The position numbers were made by a program, and so were the translations under genes. Source: an uncultured Enterobacteriaceae bacterium (GTDB lineage Bacteria; Myxococcota_A; UBA9042). Taken from it: a stretch of DNA of 64,000 nucleotides. The notes under the pieces were generated by a model, which saw only the letters and a list, made by a program, of their open reading frames with translations, made no database searches and was not told where the DNA came from. This document shows positions 34,017 through 45,116 of this stretch, one piece after another. Within the stretch, counting starts at the first letter, position 1; each line of letters begins with the position of its first letter. Location: the NCBI GenBank assembly GCA_964356325.1, contig CAYHHL010000001.1, forward strand, positions 57,246-121,245, read 5' to 3'.

Positions 34017-36392
<2,376 letters not shown>

Positions 36393-36441: not shown

Positions 36442-36756
36442 TCATACCGGCTCCGCCGTCAGCTTGAGAGGCGCACCGTGAGTCCGTGCATAATCCGTGA
36501 CTTGCGCGACCTTGGATTCCGCGATGTCCCGGTTGTAGGTCCCCGCTACCCCTTGGCCCTTGTGATGCACGGTCAGCATGATGTGCCTCGCCTCGGTCTC
36601 GGTCTTGTGGAAGAAGTTGCGCAGGACTTCGACCACCAGCTCCTGCGTCGTGTAATCGTCGTTGTGTACCAAGACGTTGTACAGGTGCGGCCGCTTCAGC
36701 TTCGTTGCCAGTAGCACGCCTTCTTGGTCTTGGTCCTGATTCTGGTTCTTTGACAT
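36442..36756 (-). CDS. clpS: Clp protease adaptor ClpS.
   Basis: YNVLVHNDDYTTQELVVEVLRNFFHKTETEARHIMLTVHHKGQGV matches ClpS. It lies directly upstream of clpA. Confidence 0.85.
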   Translation of the reverse strand: MSKNQNQDQDQEGVLLATKLKRPHLYNVLVHNDDYTTQELVVEVLRNFFHKTETEARHIMLTVHHKGQGVAGTYNRDIAESKVAQVTDYARTHGAPLKLTAEPV

Positions 36757-37076
36757 GGCCCCTGTTTGCGAGTTGCAGCGAATGGAAAAGAGACGATCAA
36801 CCGGCAACTCGCGGCCAGCCAGCCCGGGAGGTCGCCACGAAGGGCGTCCTTGCCCTCCGCTGTCGTGTTCCAACCCTCATGGTAGGACAACCGCGACCGG
36901 AGGCAAGGTTCACCGGTCTGCGGCCACGGCGGGAAACGGGTATTCCCGGGCAGTTGCGTGATCGGCGGCGCGGGCACGGGTTGGCCACGCGAGGACCGGC
37001 GCGGTCCGATTTTCACCCCTTGCGAGAAGTGCTGCCGGGCATCACGCTGGCTCAACCCACCGTGAAGGAGTTGCAG

Positions 37077-37403
37077 ATGGCCGCGATCGATACCGCCCGG
37101 ACCGAGAAGCTGCGCCGAGATCTGGCGCGCAAAGGCATGGAAGTCAACGAGAAGCTGACCAGGATGTTGGCCGCCCAGAACGCGACGCTGACGACGATGA
37201 AGTTGCCGAGCGAGGAGGAGCCGGGCCTGAAACCGCACGAGAAGTTGCGGCGCTATCTCGACCAGATCGTGCGCGCCCAGAAGCGGCTCGGCACCGGTGC
37301 GTGGGGGGCTTGCATGCATTGCGCGGCGGAACTGGCCGAGGCGGCGTTGGACGATGCGCCGTGGCTCGAACTGTGCGCGAAGTGTGCGGCCGACGAGAGC
37401 TGA
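37077..37403 (+). CDS. DksA/TraR-family C4 zinc-finger protein.
   Basis: GAAGGAG lies 6 nt upstream of the ATG. The C-terminus carries CMHCAAEL...CAKC. A coiled-coil-like N-terminus precedes it. Confidence 0.65.
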   Translation: MAAIDTARTEKLRRDLARKGMEVNEKLTRMLAAQNATLTTMKLPSEEEPGLKPHEKLRRYLDQIVRAQKRLGTGAWGACMHCAAELAEAALDDAPWLELCAKCAADES

Positions 37404-37601: not shown

Positions 37602-38714
37602 TCAGCGCGAGGACTCGCGTCCCAACACCGCTTGGCCTATCGGGTCCAGCGCGCGTTCGAGCACCACGGTCCGCGTCGGAAAGGCCATCGCTAGCCCCGC
37701 CGCCTGGAATCCAGCGTGGATCGCCAGGTTCACCGCGTGGTGCACTTCGCCGGCCAGATTGGCGTCCGGCACCTTGTAGAGCACGCGTACGCCCAACGCC
37801 GAATCGCCGAAGTTCACGAACATCACGGAGAATTCAGGGTGGATACCCGGTTGCGCCGCCAACACCGCCCGCACCAGATCCACTGCCTGCAGCACCTGCG
37901 CCGGTGTCGAACCATAGGTCAGCGATAGCAGGAAGTCGCGCACCAAGCCATCAGGATGACTGTGGTTTTCAATAGTCGCCTCGGCCAGCTTCTTGTTCGG
38001 GATGACGGTGCAGATGCCGTTGCCCTGCAGCAGCCGGGTCGAACGCAGGCCAATCGCCGTCACCTTACCGAAGTGGCCATCCACCTTGATCCAGTCGCCG
38101 ATGCTGAACGGCCGATCCGTCATGATCTGCAGGCTGCCCAACAGGTTGCCGAGCGTCTCCTGCGCCGCCAGCGCCACTGCCAGACCGCCGATGCCCAGAC
38201 CCGTGACCACCGAGATCACATCGAAACCCGCGCGTTGCAGCACGGTGACCGCAAGCAGCAGGGCGAACACGATCTTGGCGGTGACCCGGGCGAAATTCAG
38301 CACCGCGACGCTGACCGGCGGGGCCTGACGCGCCGCCCAGGGCACCATCAGTTCCTCGTACACCACGTCGACCGCGCGCAGGAGCATGGCGCCGATCGTC
38401 ACCGCCACAGCGATGGCCAGGGCATCGACGCCAAACCGGTGCGTGCTTTCCGGCATCGTCAGGATTTGCAGGGAGATGTGAACCGAGCCGAAGAACACCA
38501 GCACGGCGGTGGGCCGGGCCAGGCGTTGCACCAGGCGGTCGTCCAACGTCGTGGCGGTACGCGCCGTCAGCTTGGTCACGAAGCGCGTCATCAGGAACGC
38601 GCCCAACCGGCCGAGCAGCCAACCCAGCATCAGCACCAGCGCGACGACAAGCCAAGTCCGCGCCGGATTGCCTGCGAATTCACGGGCGAACCATTGATTC
38701 ATCGGCATCGTCAT
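37602..38714 (-). CDS. MscS-family mechanosensitive channel.
   Basis: There are TM helices and the MscS beta-domain motif DGHFGKVTAIGLRSTRLLQGNGICTVIPNKKLAEATIEN. The ATG overlaps the stop of the radical-SAM gene in an ATGA arrangement. Confidence 0.85.
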   Translation of the reverse strand: MTMPMNQWFAREFAGNPARTWLVVALVLMLGWLLGRLGAFLMTRFVTKLTARTATTLDDRLVQRLARPTAVLVFFGSVHISLQILTMPESTHRFGVDALAIAVAVTIGAMLLRAVDVVYEELMVPWAARQAPPVSVAVLNFARVTAKIVFALLLAVTVLQRAGFDVISVVTGLGIGGLAVALAAQETLGNLLGSLQIMTDRPFSIGDWIKVDGHFGKVTAIGLRSTRLLQGNGICTVIPNKKLAEATIENHSHPDGLVRDFLLSLTYGSTPAQVLQAVDLVRAVLAAQPGIHPEFSVMFVNFGDSALGVRVLYKVPDANLAGEVHHAVNLAIHAGFQAAGLAMAFPTRTVVLERALDPIGQAVLGRESSR

Positions 38715-40210
38715 GCGGCACGCTCGCGGGTGGGAGCGAGATCTTGGCGCACGGCGAGCTCGAGGGCGGCGATGCGCAGGATCCGGGGTAGAACCGCTCG
38801 GAATACTTCACAGTACGGCGAGCGACCGTCGACGTGGCCTTCGCGGCGGTACAGCAGCAGGGGACAACCGCCCGCGCAACTCGGCTTCCAGCGGCAGGCG
38901 TTGCAGGTAGAGTTGCCGGATTCGCGGCGAAACTGCGTGAATTGGCTCTGGGATCGCGCCATCGTCAGCAGGCTTTCCGGTCGGATCGGCTGCGTGCCGG
39001 GGTGATGCAAGGCAGCTTGGCAAGGGCTGATTTCGCCCGATTCAGCGATCGCGACGTACGAGTCGCCCGCGCCACAGGCCTTGGCGATCGGGCGCCACGG
39101 CTCCAGGTCGCAGAACTTGTGGCTGGCGCGAAAACCGCTGACTTCACCGCGACCTACCGCCTGTTCAATCAGATCGTAGCAAAGGCCGAACACCCGCTGC
39201 ACGCGCTGCAAGGCTTCACCCGACAGGATACCATTGGAATCGTTCGTTTGGATCTCTGCCAGTTGCGCGCCGTGGCGATCGTCCAGCACGCCCTGACCCC
39301 ACTCGAGGTCGCGCACTAGGCTGTAGCGAAACCACAACTTGCGTTCGAGCAGCCAGGCCGTCAGCGCGGGCAGACCGTCGAGGTTGCTGTCGCCCACCGT
39401 GATGAGGATGTACGGCCGGATGCCCGCGTCGAGATAGGTCTGCAAGCCCGCCTGAAGTCTGGCGAAAGACGATCCACCTCCCTTGACCGGGCGCATCACG
39501 TCCTGCACGCCGTCCAGCCCGTCGATCGAGACCGAGACGTGCACGCCGTGCGCCAGGATCCACTCGGTTGCCCCCGGGGGCACCACCGTGCCGTTGGTCA
39601 GGATCGCCGCCGAGAATTTCACCCCGTGACTTTGGCAACTTGCGGTCGCATCGGTGAAGAACTGCTGGATGTTGGCAAAGCGCAGCATCGGCTCGCCGCC
39701 TGCGAAACGGACGTTGATGCGATCCACTGCCCCTGAAGCCGCGGTCGCCTCGATCGATTGCAGCACCCGGGCCGCGACGTTGACGTCCATGTGCGTGGCA
39801 GACTTGTGGATATAGCAGTACGGACAAGCGAGGTTGCAGGCGTTGGTCACATGCAGCCAGGCGTTGAACACCCGCTCCTGCTTGCCGTCCGGCCGCCACG
39901 GCCGCACGCCCGGCGACAGCACGAAGCCGTTGCGCCAGAGCAGAGGCAGTTCAGCCAGCAATCGTATGATTTCTTGGGGATCGTCGCTCGCCAGTTCGGC
40001 TGCGATGTCGGCGGCTGAGCGTCCGTCCGCCGCGTGCAACAGCCGCAACGCGCGCGGCGTGAGCAAGGCCAAGGCGTCGTGACCGTTGGGATTATGCGCG
40101 AACGATCGACCGCGCGCGACGCCTTGGTACAAGCCCGGCGCCCGCTGGATCGGCAGATCCGCCCACGTGTCTTGCGCGGGCGCCTGCCACGGCCGCTTCA
40201 CCGTCGCCAC
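38711..40210 (-). CDS. Radical SAM/SPASM-domain enzyme with an N-terminal PqqD-like RiPP recognition element.
   Basis: The CxxxCxxC motif reads HVTNACNLACPYCY. The C-terminal SPASM cysteines are CDLEPW...CGAGD...PCQ...CNACRWKPSCAGGCP...YCEVF. The N-terminal ~90 aa (SFAHNPNGHDALALLTPRALRLLHAADGRSAADIAAELASDDPQEIIRLLAELPLLWRNGFV) have a PqqD/RRE-like pattern. The start is a GTG at 40210 or 40201, or an ATG at 40264. Confidence 0.8.
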   Translation of the reverse strand: MATVKRPWQAPAQDTWADLPIQRAPGLYQGVARGRSFAHNPNGHDALALLTPRALRLLHAADGRSAADIAAELASDDPQEIIRLLAELPLLWRNGFVLSPGVRPWRPDGKQERVFNAWLHVTNACNLACPYCYIHKSATHMDVNVAARVLQSIEATAASGAVDRINVRFAGGEPMLRFANIQQFFTDATASCQSHGVKFSAAILTNGTVVPPGATEWILAHGVHVSVSIDGLDGVQDVMRPVKGGGSSFARLQAGLQTYLDAGIRPYILITVGDSNLDGLPALTAWLLERKLWFRYSLVRDLEWGQGVLDDRHGAQLAEIQTNDSNGILSGEALQRVQRVFGLCYDLIEQAVGRGEVSGFRASHKFCDLEPWRPIAKACGAGDSYVAIAESGEISPCQAALHHPGTQPIRPESLLTMARSQSQFTQFRRESGNSTCNACRWKPSCAGGCPLLLYRREGHVDGRSPYCEVFRAVLPRILRIAALELAVRQDLAPTRERAA

Positions 40211-41478
40211 TAGTTGTTGCAGTCCCAGGAACAGTCGCTGCTGCAATCGCTCGAGCAGTCCCATGAGCAGTCGCTGCTGCAGTCGGCGGAACAGTCGCTG
40301 CTGGCGCAATCTGTTGCCGCAGCGCAGTCCCAACCACTCGAATCACCAGAACTTTCACCGGACGAACTGTCGCCGGCCGCGCAGTCGAAGTTGCCAGCGG
40401 CCGTGCTGCCGCCCGTGTCGTACTGGTCCCAACTGCTGTTGCCCGCGTCGTAACCAGCCATCGCGTTGTCGTCCCAGCTCGCGGTCGAGAAGTCGCGGTC
40501 CATCACATCGCTGACGCCGCCCAACTGGTGTGAATAGCTGCCGATGTCGTCCGCGTTGCCGATGGGCGCGCCGTTGTAGTTGATGACCGTGACCGGGGCG
40601 CCGTAGCTGGACCAATGGCTGCCCAGGTAGCCAGCGCCGTATCCCCAGTGATGTCGCGGGCTGATGAGCGCATCCAGCACCATCAAGTTCACGAACGTGT
40701 CCATAGGATCCCGATAATACACGCTCCAAGGGTCGTAGTAGGGACTCGCCCAGCCACTGCGGGCGTAGACCGGGGCATTGCGCAGGTGGGCGTCGCGGTC
40801 GCACTGGCTCTGGCCCAGGTCGCGCACGTCCTCGCCGCTCGGGCGCACCACCTGCACGTCGGCGGGGTCGGACTCCAGGAGCGCGGTCGGAAACGCCCTC
40901 TGCAGGCCGCCTTGCACCTTGGCCGCCACCTCGCTCAGCACGTTGCGGTACATCGGCACGAGTTGCGCGTCAGCCAGGGCCTTGCCGATGCGATCCTTGG
41001 CTTTTTCGATGTCCTCGCCCTCGCGCGGTCGCAACTCGTCGATGCGCGCGCCGAACGACACCACCGCGTGCGGCTCGGTCTTCTTGGCCTTGGCACGCAC
41101 GGTCACTTCCAGCAGGCTGTGCAGGCCTTGGCCCTGGTACTCGAACACCGCGCGCAACATCTTGAATCCACCGGTGAACCGGGATGCGGATCGACGCATG
41201 GCCGCCACCAGCAGGTCGGCGTCGTGGTCGCGATCCTCGAGATCCTGGAAGACCACCTCGTCGTCGACCACGAGCGTCACGGCGTTGGTGATCCCGGCGA
41301 TCTGCAAGGCTTTCTGCACCTGTTCGGTCAGCGCTAGCACGTTCTGGGTAATCAGCAATTCACCCGTGCGCAAGTCGACGTCCGAGCCGAACGCGGTCTT
41401 GACCTTGTCCCAGAAGCTCGGCTGGCGAAACACTTCCTCGCCTTGGATGTAGAGACGGACCTGTGCTGTGAGGCGCAT
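40210..41478 (-). CDS. Protein of 422 aa with an unknown N-terminal domain, a Tyr/Trp/Gly-rich middle region and a C-terminal (D-C-S-x)n / W-D-C repeat tail. Candidate substrate of the adjacent radical SAM enzyme.
   Basis: AAGGAG lies 8 nt upstream of the ATG at 41478. The tail reads ...NFDCAAGDSSSGESSGDSSGWDCAAATDCASSDCSADCSSDCSWDCSSDCSSDCSWDCNN*. The stop TAG overlaps the GTG of the rSAM gene by 1 nt. Confidence 0.65.
   Translation of the reverse strand: MRLTAQVRLYIQGEEVFRQPSFWDKVKTAFGSDVDLRTGELLITQNVLALTEQVQKALQIAGITNAVTLVVDDEVVFQDLEDRDHDADLLVAAMRRSASRFTGGFKMLRAVFEYQGQGLHSLLEVTVRAKAKKTEPHAVVSFGARIDELRPREGEDIEKAKDRIGKALADAQLVPMYRNVLSEVAAKVQGGLQRAFPTALLESDPADVQVVRPSGEDVRDLGQSQCDRDAHLRNAPVYARSGWASPYYDPWSVYYRDPMDTFVNLMVLDALISPRHHWGYGAGYLGSHWSSYGAPVTVINYNGAPIGNADDIGSYSHQLGGVSDVMDRDFSTASWDDNAMAGYDAGNSSWDQYDTGGSTAAGNFDCAAGDSSSGESSGDSSGWDCAAATDCASSDCSADCSSDCSWDCSSDCSSDCSWDCNN
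40213..40400. repeat. 12-nt periodic tandem DNA repeats encoding the DCSx tail. The plus-strand unit is approximately GCAGTCGCTGCT.
   Basis: The units are read directly, for example gcagtcgctgctgcaatcgct / gcagtcgctgctgcagtcggc / gaacagtcgctgctg. Confidence 0.7.
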
Positions 41479-41502
41479 CGGCAGGACTCCTTGACCGTTG
41501 GC

Positions 41503-42505
41503 TTATTTGCGATCGACGGCGATGCGCAGTTGCTGGGCTCGTTCGGTCAGGGACCGCACCCGGGCGATGCTCTCGCGCGTCGGTGCCTGGCTCTTGATTT
41601 CCTTGAGGCTGGTGTCCACGGCGCTGGCCTGATCGACCAGAGTCGTGTAATTCGGATGGCTTTCGTCCAGACCCATCCAGACGTCGGCCATCGTCGCTTC
41701 CGGGCCGGCCAGCACCTTCTTCAGTTCCTCGCCCAGCCCGGTGTCGCGCTGCTTGCGCCGCCAGAATACCCAGCCGGCGACGCCCAAGGCCGCGATGATC
41801 ATGAAGTAGAGCAAGCCATTGCCACCGGAGGACTGTGCGGGCGGCAGGGCCTGGGGTACTTGCACCGAAGTCGTCGTGGCCAGCGCGCCGTCGTTGCCGC
41901 GAGCCGGGGCAGTGTTCTCGTACGGTTGCCCGGACTTGTAGCGCGCGTAGGCTGCGGACATCTGGCCGGACGCCCTTGTTGGCGTTGGCGTGCTGGAATT
42001 CGTTCCATGACATCTTGCCAACCACGTTCTGGCCGACGACGTTTTTCGTACGAGTCAGCGCGGTTGCCACTTCATTGGTCAAGGAGCGCATGCGATCGAG
42101 CGGCTGGCCCCCTTGCGACATCACGCGATTCAGCACCGCCTGCTTGTCCGCCGAGGTCAGGGCATTGCTGCGCAGGTCCCACTTCGGCCCGTTGGTCGAG
42201 ATGAGCACGTCCTTGCCCGACATGCCCAGGTCACCGTACATCGCCGCGAAATCGTTCGGATCGTCAGACTCCTTCATGACCACGAGATAGACCTTGGCGC
42301 CTGTGCGCTGGGCCGTCTCCTTGGCCAGCGTGTCGAGCTGAGCCTTGACGTTGGCGTCGAACGAGCTGGGCTGCACCGCGCCGGCCTGGCCCTTTTGCCG
42401 CAGGATGTCCGCGACCTGGCGGGGATATGCCCAAGCGGGCAGGGCGGACAACCACACAAGCAGGGCCAGGCAGCGCACCAGGAAAACGGGCAATCGGCGG
42501 GTCAT
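41503..42505 (-). pseudogene. TPM-domain (YgcG/TLP18.3-like) protein gene with an apparent frameshift between the TPM domain and the TM plus C-terminal region.
   Basis: Frame A (42505..~41975) has GGAGG 5 nt upstream of the ATG, a signal peptide and the TPM segment AKVYLVVMKE...DVLISTNGPKWDLR. Frame B (42021..41503) holds the TM helix GLLYFMIIAALGVAGWVFW and a coiled C-terminus. No stop separates the two frames. Confidence 0.5.
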
Positions 42506-42558
42506 CGGGCCTCCAGCATCAACTGGGCCGGCAGGGTACGGCCGCGCGTCGTCCGGCG

Positions 42559-43998
42559 TCAATTCAGGCGCAGGCTGGGACTGCGCCGGACCACCAGCGC
42601 CTGGTCGGGGCTGACGATCGAGCCCTTGGGGCTCCAGAACATCAGGAACTTCGACTGGCTCTGGCACGCCTCGGGGGTCAGCTTGCCGGACTTCGCGCAC
42701 GGGGTCGTGTCGTCCACGAGGTCATGCAGCTTGCCGTCGGCCTCGTCGGTGTGCCATAGGCCCAGGAAGTGCCCGAGTTCATGGGCCAATACCACACCCC
42801 AGACGTCGCCTGCGGTCGTCGAGGTCGGCCCTAGCTTGACCACCTGCTGCCATTGCTCCGGATCGATGACGATGGCCATGCCGGTCATGCGCGACCCCGC
42901 CAACCCGGGCACGCCGCCGAGCTGTGACAACCCCGCGGCAATAGGCGCTTTGTTGTCCGTCAGCGCCGCAGTGATGACCAGCGTGGCCGCCGTCGACTTC
43001 GGGTTCAGCTTGCCGGTCGCCTGATACACCTGGGCCAGCTCGTTGCTGGCGTCGCCCGCCAACACATTGTCGATGAAGTGGAATTTCTTGCCGTCGTCGC
43101 CCGTGATGTCATAGACGTGCACTGTGCCCAGCTTGAGGTTCGCCGGCTTCCAGATCTGCTCGACACGGGCGCGCATCTGCAACCATTGCGGCGACACGGC
43201 AAACGTCGCGGCGGTCGCGGGCACGCCGTCGGCCAGGTAGACGTCCAGGTCGAGCGTGACCGGTTGCTGGCCCGGCACCTCACCGCGCGCGAGCACGCCG
43301 AAGTGCAGCCAGGAGGGCGACGTCTTGCCGGCGTAGAGCGAAGGTTGCTGATCCGTGCGCAGAAAGCCGAAAGTCCACGGCCCCGCGACCACGCTGACCA
43401 ATGGCGACATGCCGATGAGCGCCGTCGCCCCGCCGATGCCCGGATACGCACGGTTGTACGAGTGCTCCCAATCCAATGAACTGAGGATCTGCAGCTTGTT
43501 CGGCGAGATCAGCGTGTCGGCCCAGACGTAGTGATCGAACGGCGTGGGACCGATGTCGCGCGCGACCAGCAGCACGCCGGTGTTCTTGTTCGGGATGTTG
43601 AAGACCTTGGTCGGCGCACCGTTGGAACCCACCTGCACCAGGCCGAGATCGAGCCACTGCTGGTCCGCGCGCAGGTTGGGCCCGGGATGGCAGCCTTCGT
43701 CGATGCGGCTGTCGCCATTATCGTCAGTCTGGTTGCCGCACGATTCCGGCAGGATGGGGCCCGTGTCCGCGTTCTTGACGTCCGTCTTGGCGCCGGTGTC
43801 GGTCTTGGTGTCCGTCGCGGCATCGGTCTTGGCACCGGTCTGGGCGTCCAGCTTGGCGTCGGTCGCGGCGTCGGCAGCCCGAGCCAGCCCGGCGTCCAGG
43901 CCACCCACAGCCTCGCTGGCCGGACCGCAGGCCAGCGCCGACAGCGCCACCAGGGCGGCAGCGAGCAAGGCGTGTGGTTGGACAAGACCTGGAAACAT
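42559..43998 (-). CDS. Zinc metalloprotease lipoprotein, metzincin (M43 pappalysin/cytophagalysin-like).
   Basis: HELGHFLGLWH gives HExxHxxGxxH, and a Met-turn region lies downstream. The lipoprotein signal is LVALSALACGP. Confidence 0.8.
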   Translation of the reverse strand: MFPGLVQPHALLAAALVALSALACGPASEAVGGLDAGLARAADAATDAKLDAQTGAKTDAATDTKTDTGAKTDVKNADTGPILPESCGNQTDDNGDSRIDEGCHPGPNLRADQQWLDLGLVQVGSNGAPTKVFNIPNKNTGVLLVARDIGPTPFDHYVWADTLISPNKLQILSSLDWEHSYNRAYPGIGGATALIGMSPLVSVVAGPWTFGFLRTDQQPSLYAGKTSPSWLHFGVLARGEVPGQQPVTLDLDVYLADGVPATAATFAVSPQWLQMRARVEQIWKPANLKLGTVHVYDITGDDGKKFHFIDNVLAGDASNELAQVYQATGKLNPKSTAATLVITAALTDNKAPIAAGLSQLGGVPGLAGSRMTGMAIVIDPEQWQQVVKLGPTSTTAGDVWGVVLAHELGHFLGLWHTDEADGKLHDLVDDTTPCAKSGKLTPEACQSQSKFLMFWSPKGSIVSPDQALVVRRSPSLRLN

Positions 43999-44066
43999 CG
44001 GCTCTCCGGTGGGCGGGGCAGCGCCAGCATCATAGTCGAACGGCGCGGTTTCGCCACGGCTCGCCA

Positions 44067-45116
44067 TCAACCCGTGGCTTCCCCTGCCAGATCCTCTGCC
44101 ATCCAGCCCGCCAGCGAGCGCTCCGGCCGAGCCAGCGCCCACATGGTCTTGACCACGGTCGCCTCGAAGGTCATGTCGCGCGCCTCGACCGCCCCTGCCT
44201 CCAGCAGCGCCCGTCCGCCCGCGTACATCGCCAGATCCGTGCGCCCGCGGTGGCATTGGCTCGTGACGACCACCCCGATGTTCGCCGCCGCCAGATCCTG
44301 GACCAGCGGCAACAGGCTGCCCTCACCGCGCACCGGCACGTTGCCCACGCCGAAACCGCGGATGATCACAGCGCGAAGCCGATCTCGTACCTCGGCGGTC
44401 AGCAGGTCGCGCATCGCCCTCGGATCGAATCCCGGGAACATCGTCAGGGCCAGCACGCGCCGATCCAGCGCAGTCTCCAGTCGGAACGGTCCCTTCGGTT
44501 GACGGATGCGCGGCCGGTCGAGTTGCAGGTCCACCCCGATGCGGCCGAGCGGAGGCTCTGCGGGCGACTCGAAGGCCTGGTAGTCGTTGGCATCCGCCTT
44601 GGTCGACCGGCAACCGCGCAGGATCGCGTCGCCGAACACGATCAGCACTTCGGGCACGTCGCCGGTCGCCGTTTCCACCGCCGAGGTCAGGTTGGCGCGC
44701 GCATCGGTCCGCCACGCCTCCAGGGGCCGTTGGGAACCCGTGAACACCACTGGGCGATCGAGGTTGCGCAGCATGAAGGCGAGCGCAGAGGCCGCGTACG
44801 CCAGCGTGTCGGTGCCGTGGATGATGACCACGCCGTGGAAGCCCTCGCCGGCACGACCGATTCCGGCGCGATCGACGACCATCTGGGCCAGGGCCTGCCA
44901 GTGCTCGGGCGTGACGTCCGAGGAATCCAGGTTCCAGGGCGCCACCAACTCGATATCCGCAATTTCATTGAGTTCAGGCACGCGGGCGAGCAGGCGCTGC
45001 AGGTGCGCTTCCGGGGCGAGATCCAGCCGGCGGTGATCGGGAACCGCCATGCCCAGGGTGCCACCGGTGTGGATCACCAGCACCCGCCGCGCCTTGCCTT
45101 GCATGGCCACACTCAT
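44067..45116 (-). CDS. L-asparaginase, type I-like.
   Basis: VLVIHTGGTLGM contains the threonine nucleophile motif. GVVIIHGTDTLAYAASAL is also present. Confidence 0.85.
   Translation of the reverse strand: MSVAMQGKARRVLVIHTGGTLGMAVPDHRRLDLAPEAHLQRLLARVPELNEIADIELVAPWNLDSSDVTPEHWQALAQMVVDRAGIGRAGEGFHGVVIIHGTDTLAYAASALAFMLRNLDRPVVFTGSQRPLEAWRTDARANLTSAVETATGDVPEVLIVFGDAILRGCRSTKADANDYQAFESPAEPPLGRIGVDLQLDRPRIRQPKGPFRLETALDRRVLALTMFPGFDPRAMRDLLTAEVRDRLRAVIIRGFGVGNVPVRGEGSLLPLVQDLAAANIGVVVTSQCHRGRTDLAMYAGGRALLEAGAVEARDMTFEATVVKTMWALARPERSLAGWMAEDLAGEATG

Follow-up and report, generated by a model that had tools for sequence, protein, structure and literature searches.

A myxobacterial protein with a Cys/Asp repeat tail as the probable dedicated substrate of an adjacent radical SAM/SPASM enzyme

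RiPP precursors of the NHLP and Nif11 types carry a domain-sized N-terminal region ahead of a short modified core, and their leaders, of roughly 70-100 residues, are removed. Closer to the locus described here are two radical SAM/SPASM enzymes that join cysteine to acidic residues. PapB, the freyrasin enzyme among the ranthipeptide maturases (NF047865), has a peptide-binding N-terminal domain, makes Cys-Asp/Glu thioethers and tolerates Cys-Xn-Asp with n = 0-6 (PMC9413430); its natural motif is C-x3-D, repeated on a short precursor. QhpD (TIGR03906) installs several thioethers between Cys and Asp/Glu in QhpC, the gamma subunit of quinohemoprotein amine dehydrogenase, whose gene shares an operon with that of the enzyme and whose chain is largely unstructured. 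QhpC is small (its tagged precursor is about 15 kDa), with a 28-residue N-terminal leader and three irregularly spaced links, and it stays part of a functional protein, not a free natural product (PMC7876137). A third enzyme, the thioether maturase CteB (PDB 5WGG/5WHY), belongs to the SCIFF system, whose substrates are, by the NCBIfam family name, six-Cys peptides. Full-size proteins with an unstructured, low-complexity Cys tail, tied genetically to a RiPP-type Cys-modifying enzyme, have been described next to MNIO enzymes (PMC12452194), and comprise TIGR04222 membrane proteins with Ser/Gly/Cys tails and long bufferin/oxazolin-type precursors. The known products of BufB/HvfB-like MNIOs are metal-binding heterocycles derived from Cys (PMC11626156). 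We found no paper describing the gene pair reported below.

The pair lies in a 64,000-nucleotide stretch of DNA (the window) from an uncultured myxobacterium, and both of its open reading frames are on the minus strand. The features of the region are as follows:

42559-44256, gene for a secreted HExxH metalloprotease, two genes upstream of the tail gene and syntenic in most close loci
41503..42505, minus strand, upstream neighbour of the tail gene, encoding a single-pass membrane protein (two overlapping ORFs in two frames in the window)
41487..41492, minus strand, AAGGAG ribosome-binding site, 8 nt 5' of the tail-gene ATG (direct sequence reading)
40210..41478, stop codon included, minus strand, gene for the tail-bearing protein, 422 aa (ORF with ATG start; 48 homologues; 34 genome loci)
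40444..41478, minus strand, folded body, residues 1-345 (alpha/beta fold, no solved relative)
40429..40497, minus strand, linker motif D-F-s-x-A-s-W-D-D-x-x-[LM]-x-x-Y-D-a-x-x-S-S-W at the body-tail junction, residues about 328-350 (homologue alignment)
40213..40389, minus strand, disordered C-terminal tail and proposed core (modified region), residues 364-422, ten D-C units mostly of period 4 (pLDDT about 30)
38711..40210, minus strand, radical SAM/SPASM enzyme, 499 aa from GTG 40210 (ORF, Pfam, NCBIfam, AlphaFold2)
39911..40156, minus strand, N-terminal RRE-like winged-helix domain, residues about 19-100 (predicted structure and CteB profile alignment)
39815..39838, minus strand, CxxxCxxC of the radical SAM cluster, C125-x3-C129-x2-C132 (invariant in 105 aligned sequences)
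38810..39076, minus strand, SPASM domain with seven invariant Cys: C379, C397, C436, C439, C445, C449 and C467 (alignment and Pfam PF13186)
37602..38714, minus strand, gene for an MscS-family mechanosensitive channel (Pfam MS_channel domains)

An earlier note on this sequence had proposed both reading frames, the strong ribosome-binding site before the 422-aa gene and the lack of a small precursor ORF, and all three were confirmed. The intergenic gaps in the operon measure 24, 0 and 0 nt, which leaves no space for such an ORF. The 1-nt stop/start overlap that the note described is indeed visible as TAGTG, but the GTG within it is a putative start codon, and the overlap is not conserved, the distance between the two genes ranging from -25 to +158 nt across loci. 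The public gene call for the enzyme (P0049) begins at an ATG at 40264, giving 517 aa and a 55 nt overlap with the tail ORF; the intergenic gap is zero with either start. At its other end, the enzyme stop codon overlaps the start of the channel gene as ATGA, again read from the sequence.

The 422-aa protein matched no family in Pfam or NCBIfam. Its AlphaFold model has a confident, two-lobed body of 345 residues, for which no solved structural relative was found, followed by a tail predicted to be disordered and thus accessible. In the homologue alignment the mean column identity is 55% over the whole protein, and the body holds many invariant positions. In the linker motif W335, D337 and Y343 are nearly invariant despite a low pLDDT, and we regard its WDD..L..YD part as a candidate recognition sequence for the enzyme's RRE-like domain.

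The protein ends in ...NFDCAAGDSSSGESSGDSSGWDCAAATDCASSDCSADCSSDCSWDCSSDCSSDCSWDCNN. This tail holds 10 DC dipeptides, 6 exact C-x2-D, 2 C-x3-D and 1 C-x4-D spacings, and 4 W-D-[CQ] units, so that the four W-D-[CQ] counted before stand while the estimate of about 8 C-x2-D was slightly too high. The final 80 residues were compared in 67 distinct homologues, which all come from metagenome genomes of Myxococcota: Asp precedes every Cys (643/643), and as Asp accounts for only 19% of the residues there, the pattern is not due to chance. Successive Cys are spaced by 4 in 399 cases and by 5 in 69, so that period 4 predominates, and the DNA of the tail contains diverged tandem repeats with periods of 12, 24 and 36. 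A further Asp follows the last Cys in 62 of the 67 proteins. At isolated D-C sites, the following Asp has no fixed position, which leaves room for registers other than C-x2-D. Judged from these alignments, the fixed unit of the tail is the D-C dipeptide and not C-x2-D.

The enzyme has the layout of a RiPP maturase. As had been noted, it carries a canonical CxxxCxxC and a seven-Cys SPASM C-terminus, the latter with canonical spacing (C379-x12-G-x4-C397, C436-x2-C439-x5-C445-x3-C449, C467). Pfam assigned Radical_SAM and SPASM domains, PF13186 scoring 21.5 bits, exactly at its cutoff. In the AlphaFold2 model (pLDDT 93.5), the N-terminal domain is predicted to consist of strands 20-23, 28-32, 35-39 and 47-50 and helices 52-60, 66-73 and 78-93. 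The PqqD/RRE-like character claimed for this segment was upheld by comparison with CteB but not by the Pfam PqqD model itself, which was matched by 2 of 26 family members without significance (best E 0.003). The family profile aligned with CteB over residues 14-265 (E 3e-42), with the CteB RRE included, and its RRE-like part aligned with CteB residues 14 to about 95. In a Foldseek search with the enzyme model, CteB also ranked first with a full-length alignment.

CteB is thus the closest solved structure by both profile and fold, and shares with the enzyme the RRE, the radical SAM core and the two-cluster SPASM layout. The two are nevertheless only about 18% identical, and the SCIFF model gives 85 bits where its cutoff is 425. 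SCIFF substrates are short (fewer than 50 residues) and bear a motif other than that of the D-C tail. None of the curated NCBIfam maturase thresholds was reached. The two best matches were PapB (120 bits, cutoff 340) and QhpD (107 bits, cutoff 453), and further sub-threshold matches were to DynA (106 bits) and the Nif11-type maturase (94 bits); the SbtM, cyclophane-former and SCIFF families all gave significant matches that stayed below threshold.

The expectation that the tail and the enzyme would vary together was borne out. Every full-length homologue of the 422-aa protein retains the tail, and at 27 of the 32 loci where the tail gene is complete the enzyme gene lies directly downstream on the same strand, with three more at a distance of 4.2-5.3 kb; among these loci the tail protein is not widespread without an adjacent enzyme, nor is the tail missing from orthologous neighbourhoods. 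Even in distant loci (L030-L033, L035), at 31% tail-protein identity and with changed surroundings, the pair is kept. There are exceptions: unrelated genes separate the pair in one clade, L009 has no radical SAM gene within 9.9 kb of its tail gene, and three enzyme orthologues of 46-51% identity (L037, L076, L040) lack a neighbouring tail gene, with none in the surrounding 5-8 kb. In L037 and L076 the enzyme gene stands in a GCS2-rSAM-rhodanese arrangement.

A profile search placed the body domain of the tail protein in a larger family that carries no name. One branch of this family, sister to that of the tail protein, has SSCGSSC tails, and in about 20 of 21 of its loci with enough upstream DNA a BufB/HvfB-like MNIO is encoded alongside, forming a conserved cassette with a different class of Cys-modifying maturase. 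A relative with a Cys-poor tail (L051) has a neighbourhood without a maturase, as has L078, with an acidic, Cys-free tail, the sole such relative with a readable neighbourhood. The good conservation of the body, together with the occurrence of the wide family without Cys tails or maturases, argues that the body has a function of its own.

On balance we favour the reading that the radical SAM/SPASM enzyme has its dedicated substrate in the neighbouring 422-aa protein. The RRE-like domain would dock on the protein, likeliest at the WDD..L..YD motif, and the tail would thread through the active site. At every turnover SAM would be reductively cleaved and a hydrogen atom abstracted, with the SPASM auxiliary clusters holding the cysteine thiolate, so as to form an intramolecular cross-link at each D-C unit. 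By analogy with PapB and QhpD, the links would most likely be thioethers from the Cys sulfur to the Asp beta-carbon; if every Cys were paired with the Asp at position +3, up to about ten small contiguous rings with the carboxylates retained may result. The body would serve as a very large 'leader' or carrier and probably remain joined to the tail. What the conserved pair suggests is the chemistry of antibiotic-type peptides, here directed at an entire protein, and as a guess the product might bind metals or other cations.

This reading draws on the adjacency of the genes and its persistence in distant loci, the invariant D-C unit in a disordered tail, the complete RRE, radical SAM and SPASM layout with a thioether-forming peptide maturase as best solved relative, the Cys-Asp/Glu chemistry of the two closest curated families, the MNIO pairing of the sister branch set beside the maturase-free L051 and L078, and the lack of space for another precursor gene. 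Against it stand the unreached family cutoffs, with families of other chemistries scoring little below PapB, the Asp-before-Cys unit with its unfixed register, the orthologues without a tail gene, the split pair and L009, and the insignificant PqqD match.

Among described systems, PapB shares a core of repeated Cys...Asp units and its range of n = 0-6 covers the spacing seen here, but the invariant unit here is D-C, at a period of 4, and it sits on a protein whose folded body has 345 residues. The qhp operon differs in that it also encodes a protease, a flavoprotein and dehydrogenase subunits, which have no counterpart here. The MNIO-associated precursors have the same architecture as the tail protein, whose sister branch is likewise paired with a BufB-like MNIO; however, MNIOs are oxygen-dependent multi-iron enzymes whereas the maturase here is a radical SAM enzyme, and TIGR04222 proteins are polytopic membrane proteins, while neither the window protein nor the MNIO-linked relative P0199 matched TIGR04222 or any other NCBIfam model. 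Compared with NHLP/Nif11-type precursors, the N-terminal part here is a two-lobed fold with relatives that lack any maturase.

The strongest competitor, a real but clearly lesser possibility, keeps the same substrate and changes the chemistry. Cys might become a thio-oxazole, as with the radical SAM enzyme SbtM and the MNIO BufB of the sister branch; sulfur might be joined to an alpha-carbon, as in sactionines; or the aromatic side chain often found ahead of D-C might be cross-linked. The sister-branch pairing with a BufB/HvfB-like MNIO, an enzyme type with heterocyclic products, and the significant SbtM, cyclophane-former and SCIFF matches speak for it, as does the aromatic residue preceding 68 of 81 isolated D-C sites. 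Within repeats, however, Ser is commoner than an aromatic residue at this position; aromatic cross-links cannot explain every unit, which weakens the cyclophane alternative. PapB and QhpD remain the top-scoring curated families, and an invariant Asp is most simply explained if it participates in the bond.

Somewhat less likely still is that the modified tail is cut off and released as a polycyclic peptide of roughly 40-60 residues, the body being only an oversized leader of the kind seen in NHLP and Nif11 precursors. The RiPP-maturase architecture, the leader-like conserved motif ahead of the core and the metalloprotease gene would suit this, but no transporter or leader peptidase is encoded in the operon, the metalloprotease seems to be extracytoplasmic and does not occur in L030-L033 despite the pair being retained there, and the conservation and wide family of the body, described above, speak against a mere leader.

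Low-complexity tails rich in Cys and Asp can bind metals, and the tail might instead be a metallothionein-like metal or Fe-S module on a partner protein supplying sulfur, iron or electrons, with the enzyme's real substrate elsewhere. The orthologues between a GCS2-family ligase and a rhodanese, and the split pair, lend themselves to this idea. We consider it improbable: the enzyme retains a peptide-binding RRE-like domain, no other candidate substrate is conserved beside it, and the strict D-C periodicity and the sister-family MNIO pairing are otherwise hard to explain. An anaerobic sulfatase-maturase (anSME)-type enzyme converting Cys to formylglycine, a grouping the earlier note had named as contrary to its proposal, is contradicted, although anSME is among the structural and sequence matches, by a score of 80.5 bits against a cutoff of 349, by the N-terminal RRE that anSMEs lack, by the absence of [CS]x[PA]xR from the window protein (it occurs in only 3 of 67 homologues) and by an operon without a sulfatase gene, and is most improbable.

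Of the other genes, the channel gene is a frequent but not universal operon member, lying downstream of the enzyme gene in most loci and absent in L008, L012, L016, L017 and L030-L033. The upstream membrane protein, which matched no Pfam family, has a signal peptide, an outer domain of about 190 aa, a TM helix and a cytoplasmic coiled coil, and its gene precedes the tail gene at almost every close locus. In the window its frame changes near 41965-41978, whereas its parts are in one frame in L001, L003 and L005, with a single ORF for a 333-aa protein in L001.

The gene for the 422-aa protein with the Asp/Cys repeat tail (the tail protein) lies directly upstream of the radical SAM/SPASM gene (rSAM), and all the relevant genes of the window (tail protein, enzyme, channel and membrane protein) are on the minus strand. 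The features of the region are as follows.

34017-36392: ClpA, downstream of the operon
about 36442-36873: ClpS, downstream of the operon
36705-37403, plus strand: DksA/TraR-like zinc-finger protein, divergent, downstream of the operon
37602..38714, minus strand: MscS-family channel gene (Pfam), its ATG overlapping the enzyme's TGA
38711..40210, minus strand: radical SAM/SPASM ORF, 499 aa from a GTG that shares its G with the TAG stop of the tail gene
40210..41478, minus strand: tail-protein gene, 422 aa, ATG start
41503-42505, minus strand: single-pass membrane-protein gene, split over two frames (ORFs 41360..42700 and 41503..42021)
42559-44256, minus strand: 565-aa protein with a HELGHxxGLxH zinc-metalloprotease motif (weak Reprolysin/M43/M10 matches)
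44067-45116: asparaginase, beside the metalloprotease gene

The strong AAGGAG reported before the tail gene was seen 8 nt upstream of its ATG. The TAGTG overlap between the two genes is also present as the earlier note described, but GTG is one of two candidate starts of the enzyme: in the public annotation the rSAM (P0049, 517 aa) opens with an ATG at 40264, which would make it overlap the tail ORF by 55 nt. The two genes touch with either start, and no obvious Shine-Dalgarno sequence precedes either candidate (window 40210-40264). The ORF map and gene junctions bear out the claim that a small precursor ORF is absent, there being no space for one in the operon. The membrane-protein gene, placed upstream at 24 nt from the tail gene, switches frame near 41965-41978; its halves share one frame in three related loci (L001, L003 and L005), and in L001 they form a single ORF of 333 aa. 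The split reflects a 1-nt error in the assembly or else a genuine frameshift or pseudogene. A TPM domain considered for this protein found no Pfam support, and promoter and terminator scans of the region were uninformative. The metalloprotease gene, the second one upstream from the tail gene, is syntenic together with asparaginase in most close loci and is missing from distant loci that retain the tail-rSAM pair. The ClpA, ClpS and DksA/TraR-like genes keep their synteny across many loci; they are probably housekeeping genes unrelated to the operon.

The tail protein matched no family in Pfam or NCBIfam. An AlphaFold2 model built with 46 homologues gave a confident two-lobed, soluble alpha/beta body (residues 1 to about 345) in which transmembrane helices are absent, followed by a disordered C-terminal tail (pLDDT about 30). 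The window protein ends in ...NFDCAAGDSSSGESSGDSSGWDCAAATDCASSDCSADCSSDCSWDCSSDCSSDCSWDCNN, which contains ten D-C dipeptides and the four W-D-[C/Q] units counted previously; the repeat tail thus stands as first described, but exact C-x2-D units number six and not the reported 'about 8'. Homologues are about 395-460 aa long and every full-length one carries the tail. In the last 80 residues of 67 distinct sequences, Asp precedes Cys at 643 of 643 tail cysteines, and successive Cys are spaced by 4 residues 399 times and by 5 residues 69 times. Since the preceding Asp is never lost, we take the conserved unit of these sequences to be D-C and not strictly C-x2-D. D-C is preceded by Ser, Trp, Phe or Tyr, with an aromatic residue there in a minority of repeat units only. 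An extra Asp follows the last Cys in 62 of the 67 homologues, and the C-terminal residue is mostly Trp (37) or Asp (25). Between body and tail, in an otherwise poorly ordered region, there is a short conserved motif of the form D-F/W ... W-D-D-x-x-L-x-x-Y-D ... S-S-W, of which the WDD..L..YD-type part is a candidate docking site for the enzyme. The named homologue records are metagenome-assembled genomes of Myxococcales, Myxococcota or 'Deltaproteobacteria', several of them from lakes or groundwater according to the record titles. Two loci of Myxococcota type, L004 and L026, carry the public titles Klebsiella pneumoniae and Enterobacteriaceae, and these organism labels are probably wrong.

In order to follow the co-variation of tail and enzyme proposed in the earlier note, we considered the 32 fetched loci with a complete tail gene. 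The rSAM was observed directly downstream on the same strand in 27 of them, with gaps of -25 to +158 nt, and 4.2-5.3 kb downstream in three more (L003, L005 and L007), which belong to one clade. Co-variation was supported, all full-length homologues being tailed. In the clade with insertions the operon is broken, and tail gene and rSAM still share a neighbourhood in L003, L005 and L007. The genes inserted between the two include those for a DEAD-box helicase and an old-yellow-enzyme-type reductase. The loci with inserted genes are these.

L003: 11240-15450
L005: 5513-10169
L007: 11231-16517
L009: 11219 onward

L009 shows no rSAM within 9.9 kb, and the contig of L006 is too short to show whether an rSAM is present. 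In distant members (31% identity; L030-L033 and L035) the pair is retained and the membrane protein, channel and other neighbours are lost. The reverse relation is looser: rSAM orthologues of 46-51% identity in L037, L076 and L040 have no tail gene nearby (none within 6-8 kb in L037 and L076). These enzymes nest within the clade holding tail-linked members and keep the RRE-like N-terminus (a putative winged-helix, PqqD-like peptide-recognition domain), and their substrate gene may lie elsewhere in the genome. In L037 (4874-7909) and L076 (6604-9955), where the rSAM is 46-48% identical, the order GCS2-family ligase, rSAM, rhodanese is conserved. This arrangement suggests that the substrate may differ or lie far away, and that sulfur or cysteine metabolism may be involved.

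The enzyme belongs to the radical SAM superfamily (PF04055, 51.8 bits vs a cutoff of 29.5), and both cysteine signatures ascribed to it were found. C125, C129 and C132 of the CxxxCxxC motif, and the seven SPASM cysteines (C379-x12-G-x4-C397, C436-x2-C439-x5-C445-x3-C449 and C467), do not vary in an alignment of 105 relatives. The latter fit the SPASM pattern for two auxiliary clusters, CX9-15GX4C ... CX2CX5CX3C ... C, and PF13186 scored 21.5 bits, precisely its cutoff. Membership of a known SPASM maturase family (anSME, PapB, cyclophane or SCIFF) was not borne out, since NCBIfam returned 74 matches, all below threshold: PapB (NF047865) 120.3 bits vs 340, its best stretch covering residues 119-291; QhpD (TIGR03906) 106.6 vs 453; DynA 106 vs 450; the SCIFF maturase (TIGR03974) 85.1 vs 425; YhhB (NF041707) 79.8 vs 445; FxsB (TIGR04269) 58 vs 370; and XyeB (TIGR04496) 53.7 vs 450. 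None of the qhp genes (QhpA, QhpB, QhpC, QhpE, QhpG) was found among the neighbours examined, and no six-Cys-in-forty-five peptide gene is next to the enzyme. From the sub-threshold scores (PapB, QhpD and DynA, with anSME at 80), the enzyme is placed by its sequence in the peptide-maturase part of the SPASM enzymes, as a member of no curated family.

The AlphaFold2 model of the enzyme was confident (pLDDT 93.5) and superposed on rSAM structures. In Foldseek the top match was CteB, the SCIFF thioether maturase of solved structure, aligned over almost the full length; anSME, TigE, ChlB and SuiB came next. The family profile aligned with CteB residues 14-265 (E 3e-42), covering its N-terminal RRE (14 to about 95), and in the model the order of predicted strands and helices in the enzyme's N-terminus fits an RRE. 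Of the 26 N-termini, Pfam PqqD matched only 2, with a best E of 0.003. A profile of the N-terminal domain alone gave chance-level matches to PDB sequences and no solved RRE; the RRE is therefore assigned from the full-length profile and the CteB fold match. Homology to CteB supports a candidate RRE-like domain with a predicted peptide-binding role.

Further evidence comes from the wider family of the body domain. A family profile of the tail protein searched against 1.84 billion cluster representatives gave 355 matches at E<=1e-3, mostly to the body alone. Four tail types were seen among the relatives: D-C repeats; Ser/Gly/Cys, for example ...SSCGSSCGGGCGGGGD; acidic Gly/Asp/Phe tails free of Cys, in which a D-W end is frequent; and none. 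MNIOs are multi-iron RiPP maturases that act on Cys. The cassette of P0199, a relative with a Ser/Gly/Cys tail, encodes in order a 193-aa unknown protein, an MNIO, a membrane/coiled-coil protein and the body-plus-tail protein. This MNIO belongs to PF05114, with BufB and HvfB as its top NCBIfam matches; the non-enzyme parts of the cassette matched no Pfam or NCBIfam family. A metagenome scan for such sister loci, built on 7 sequences because a 16-sequence alignment was too diverse, yielded 31 further loci, with an MNIO in about 20 of the 21 that have enough upstream DNA. The sister loci are L041-L074, an example cassette being L041 3794-7149. In the exception, L051, the tail holds one Cys. At L078, which has an acidic Cys-free tail, no maturase was found nearby. 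A Cys tail is thus present on the shared scaffold exactly where a neighbouring gene encodes a Cys-modifying maturase of either class, and this is the strongest indirect evidence for the tail as a substrate. As the upstream membrane proteins of the two branches show no significant BLASTP similarity, we claim a similar layout alone. A D-W C-terminus is common over the body-domain family despite differing tails (P0173, P0178, P0198, P0205, P0210, P0215, P0236 and most D-C tails); the window protein lacks it and finishes DCNN. The D-W-COOH end may be an ancestral, Cys-independent docking or sorting signal.

Taken together, we consider that the tail is probably the substrate of the rSAM enzyme. Cys-to-Asp thioether cross-linking is the leading candidate for the chemistry, to be held tentatively. 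It is suggested by the two unvarying residues of the D-C dyad, by the two best curated matches, PapB and QhpD, which make thioether-type bonds of this kind (PMC9413430; PMC7876137), and by the tolerance of PapB for spacers of n = 0-6 (PMC9413430). If each Cys i were joined to Asp i+3, four-residue rings would follow one another without a break, and the additional Asp that nearly all homologues have behind the last Cys fits this register. Asp at -1 is kept even at isolated sites, which leaves room for other registers or other Cys chemistries (thio-oxazole, sactionine or aromatic cross-links). A three-residue cyclophane former is at odds with scores below the cutoffs and with aromatic residues preceding D-C in a minority of repeats. 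The tail might instead serve as a module for metal or Fe-S and not as a substrate, a reading that must be set against its tracking of an adjacent maturase. It might also be released as a free peptide. A sulfatase-maturase reading was rejected: the enzyme does not cluster with that family (TIGR03942, 80.5 bits vs 349), and the window protein lacks the C/S-x-P/A-x-R motif, which only 3 of 67 homologues contain.

Systems of an rSAM/SPASM maturase with a Cys-repeat core are already known as a type. A ranthipeptide precursor is a short peptide of leader and Cys-rich core, whereas here the core belongs to a 422-aa protein whose folded body spans 345 residues. In ranthipeptides the thioether joins the Cys sulfur to a carbon of the partner residue other than the alpha carbon. 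A 2025 survey proposed that MNIOs modify large membrane proteins of TIGR04222 at their Ser/Gly/Cys tails (PMC12452194). Those proteins have several transmembrane segments, unlike the predicted soluble window protein, and neither it nor P0199 matched any NCBIfam model. What is new is the protein-sized folded carrier, its strict D-C periodicity and its sharing with an MNIO system. Full-text literature searches (tail repeat; SPASM in Myxococcota; myxobacterial rSAM RiPPs) returned no description of the system, and curated models cover neither tail protein nor enzyme. Genome mining that centres on precursor peptides misses both families, because their 'precursor' has about 400 residues.

A bolder reading, which we regard as rather doubtful, is RiPP-type maturation as a true protein modification. 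The Cys-repeat core would stay on an unnamed scaffold adopted independently by an oxygen-sensitive rSAM/SPASM enzyme (D-C) and an oxygen-dependent MNIO (S-S-C-G). In the D-C branch about ten Cys-Asp thioether rings would then follow one another as a contiguous ladder, attached to an intact cytoplasmic protein of 45 kDa. To our knowledge no such structure has been described. By analogy with bufferins, one may guess that the modified protein binds metal or cations. If the tail is modified, the system would stand as a clear example in nature of a radical SAM maturase of RiPP type acting on a full-size folded protein, adding to the few precedents, QhpC and sulfatases. The up to ten or more identical, strictly periodic sites of the tail would suit studies of processive cross-linking, and a function, possibly metal or cation handling, would be suggested for an unnamed domain family that comprises at least 355 clusters of sequences. 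The scaffold shared with the MNIO branch offers a natural comparison of two Cys-modification routes on one carrier.

The nearest non-orthologous rSAM/SPASM enzymes (30-34% identity; L038 2235-6518 and L039 2139-6458) directly follow TPR proteins of 205-944 aa. Cys repeats are absent from these TPR proteins, which give no pointer to a substrate, and the two loci may represent another pairing of a maturase with a large protein.
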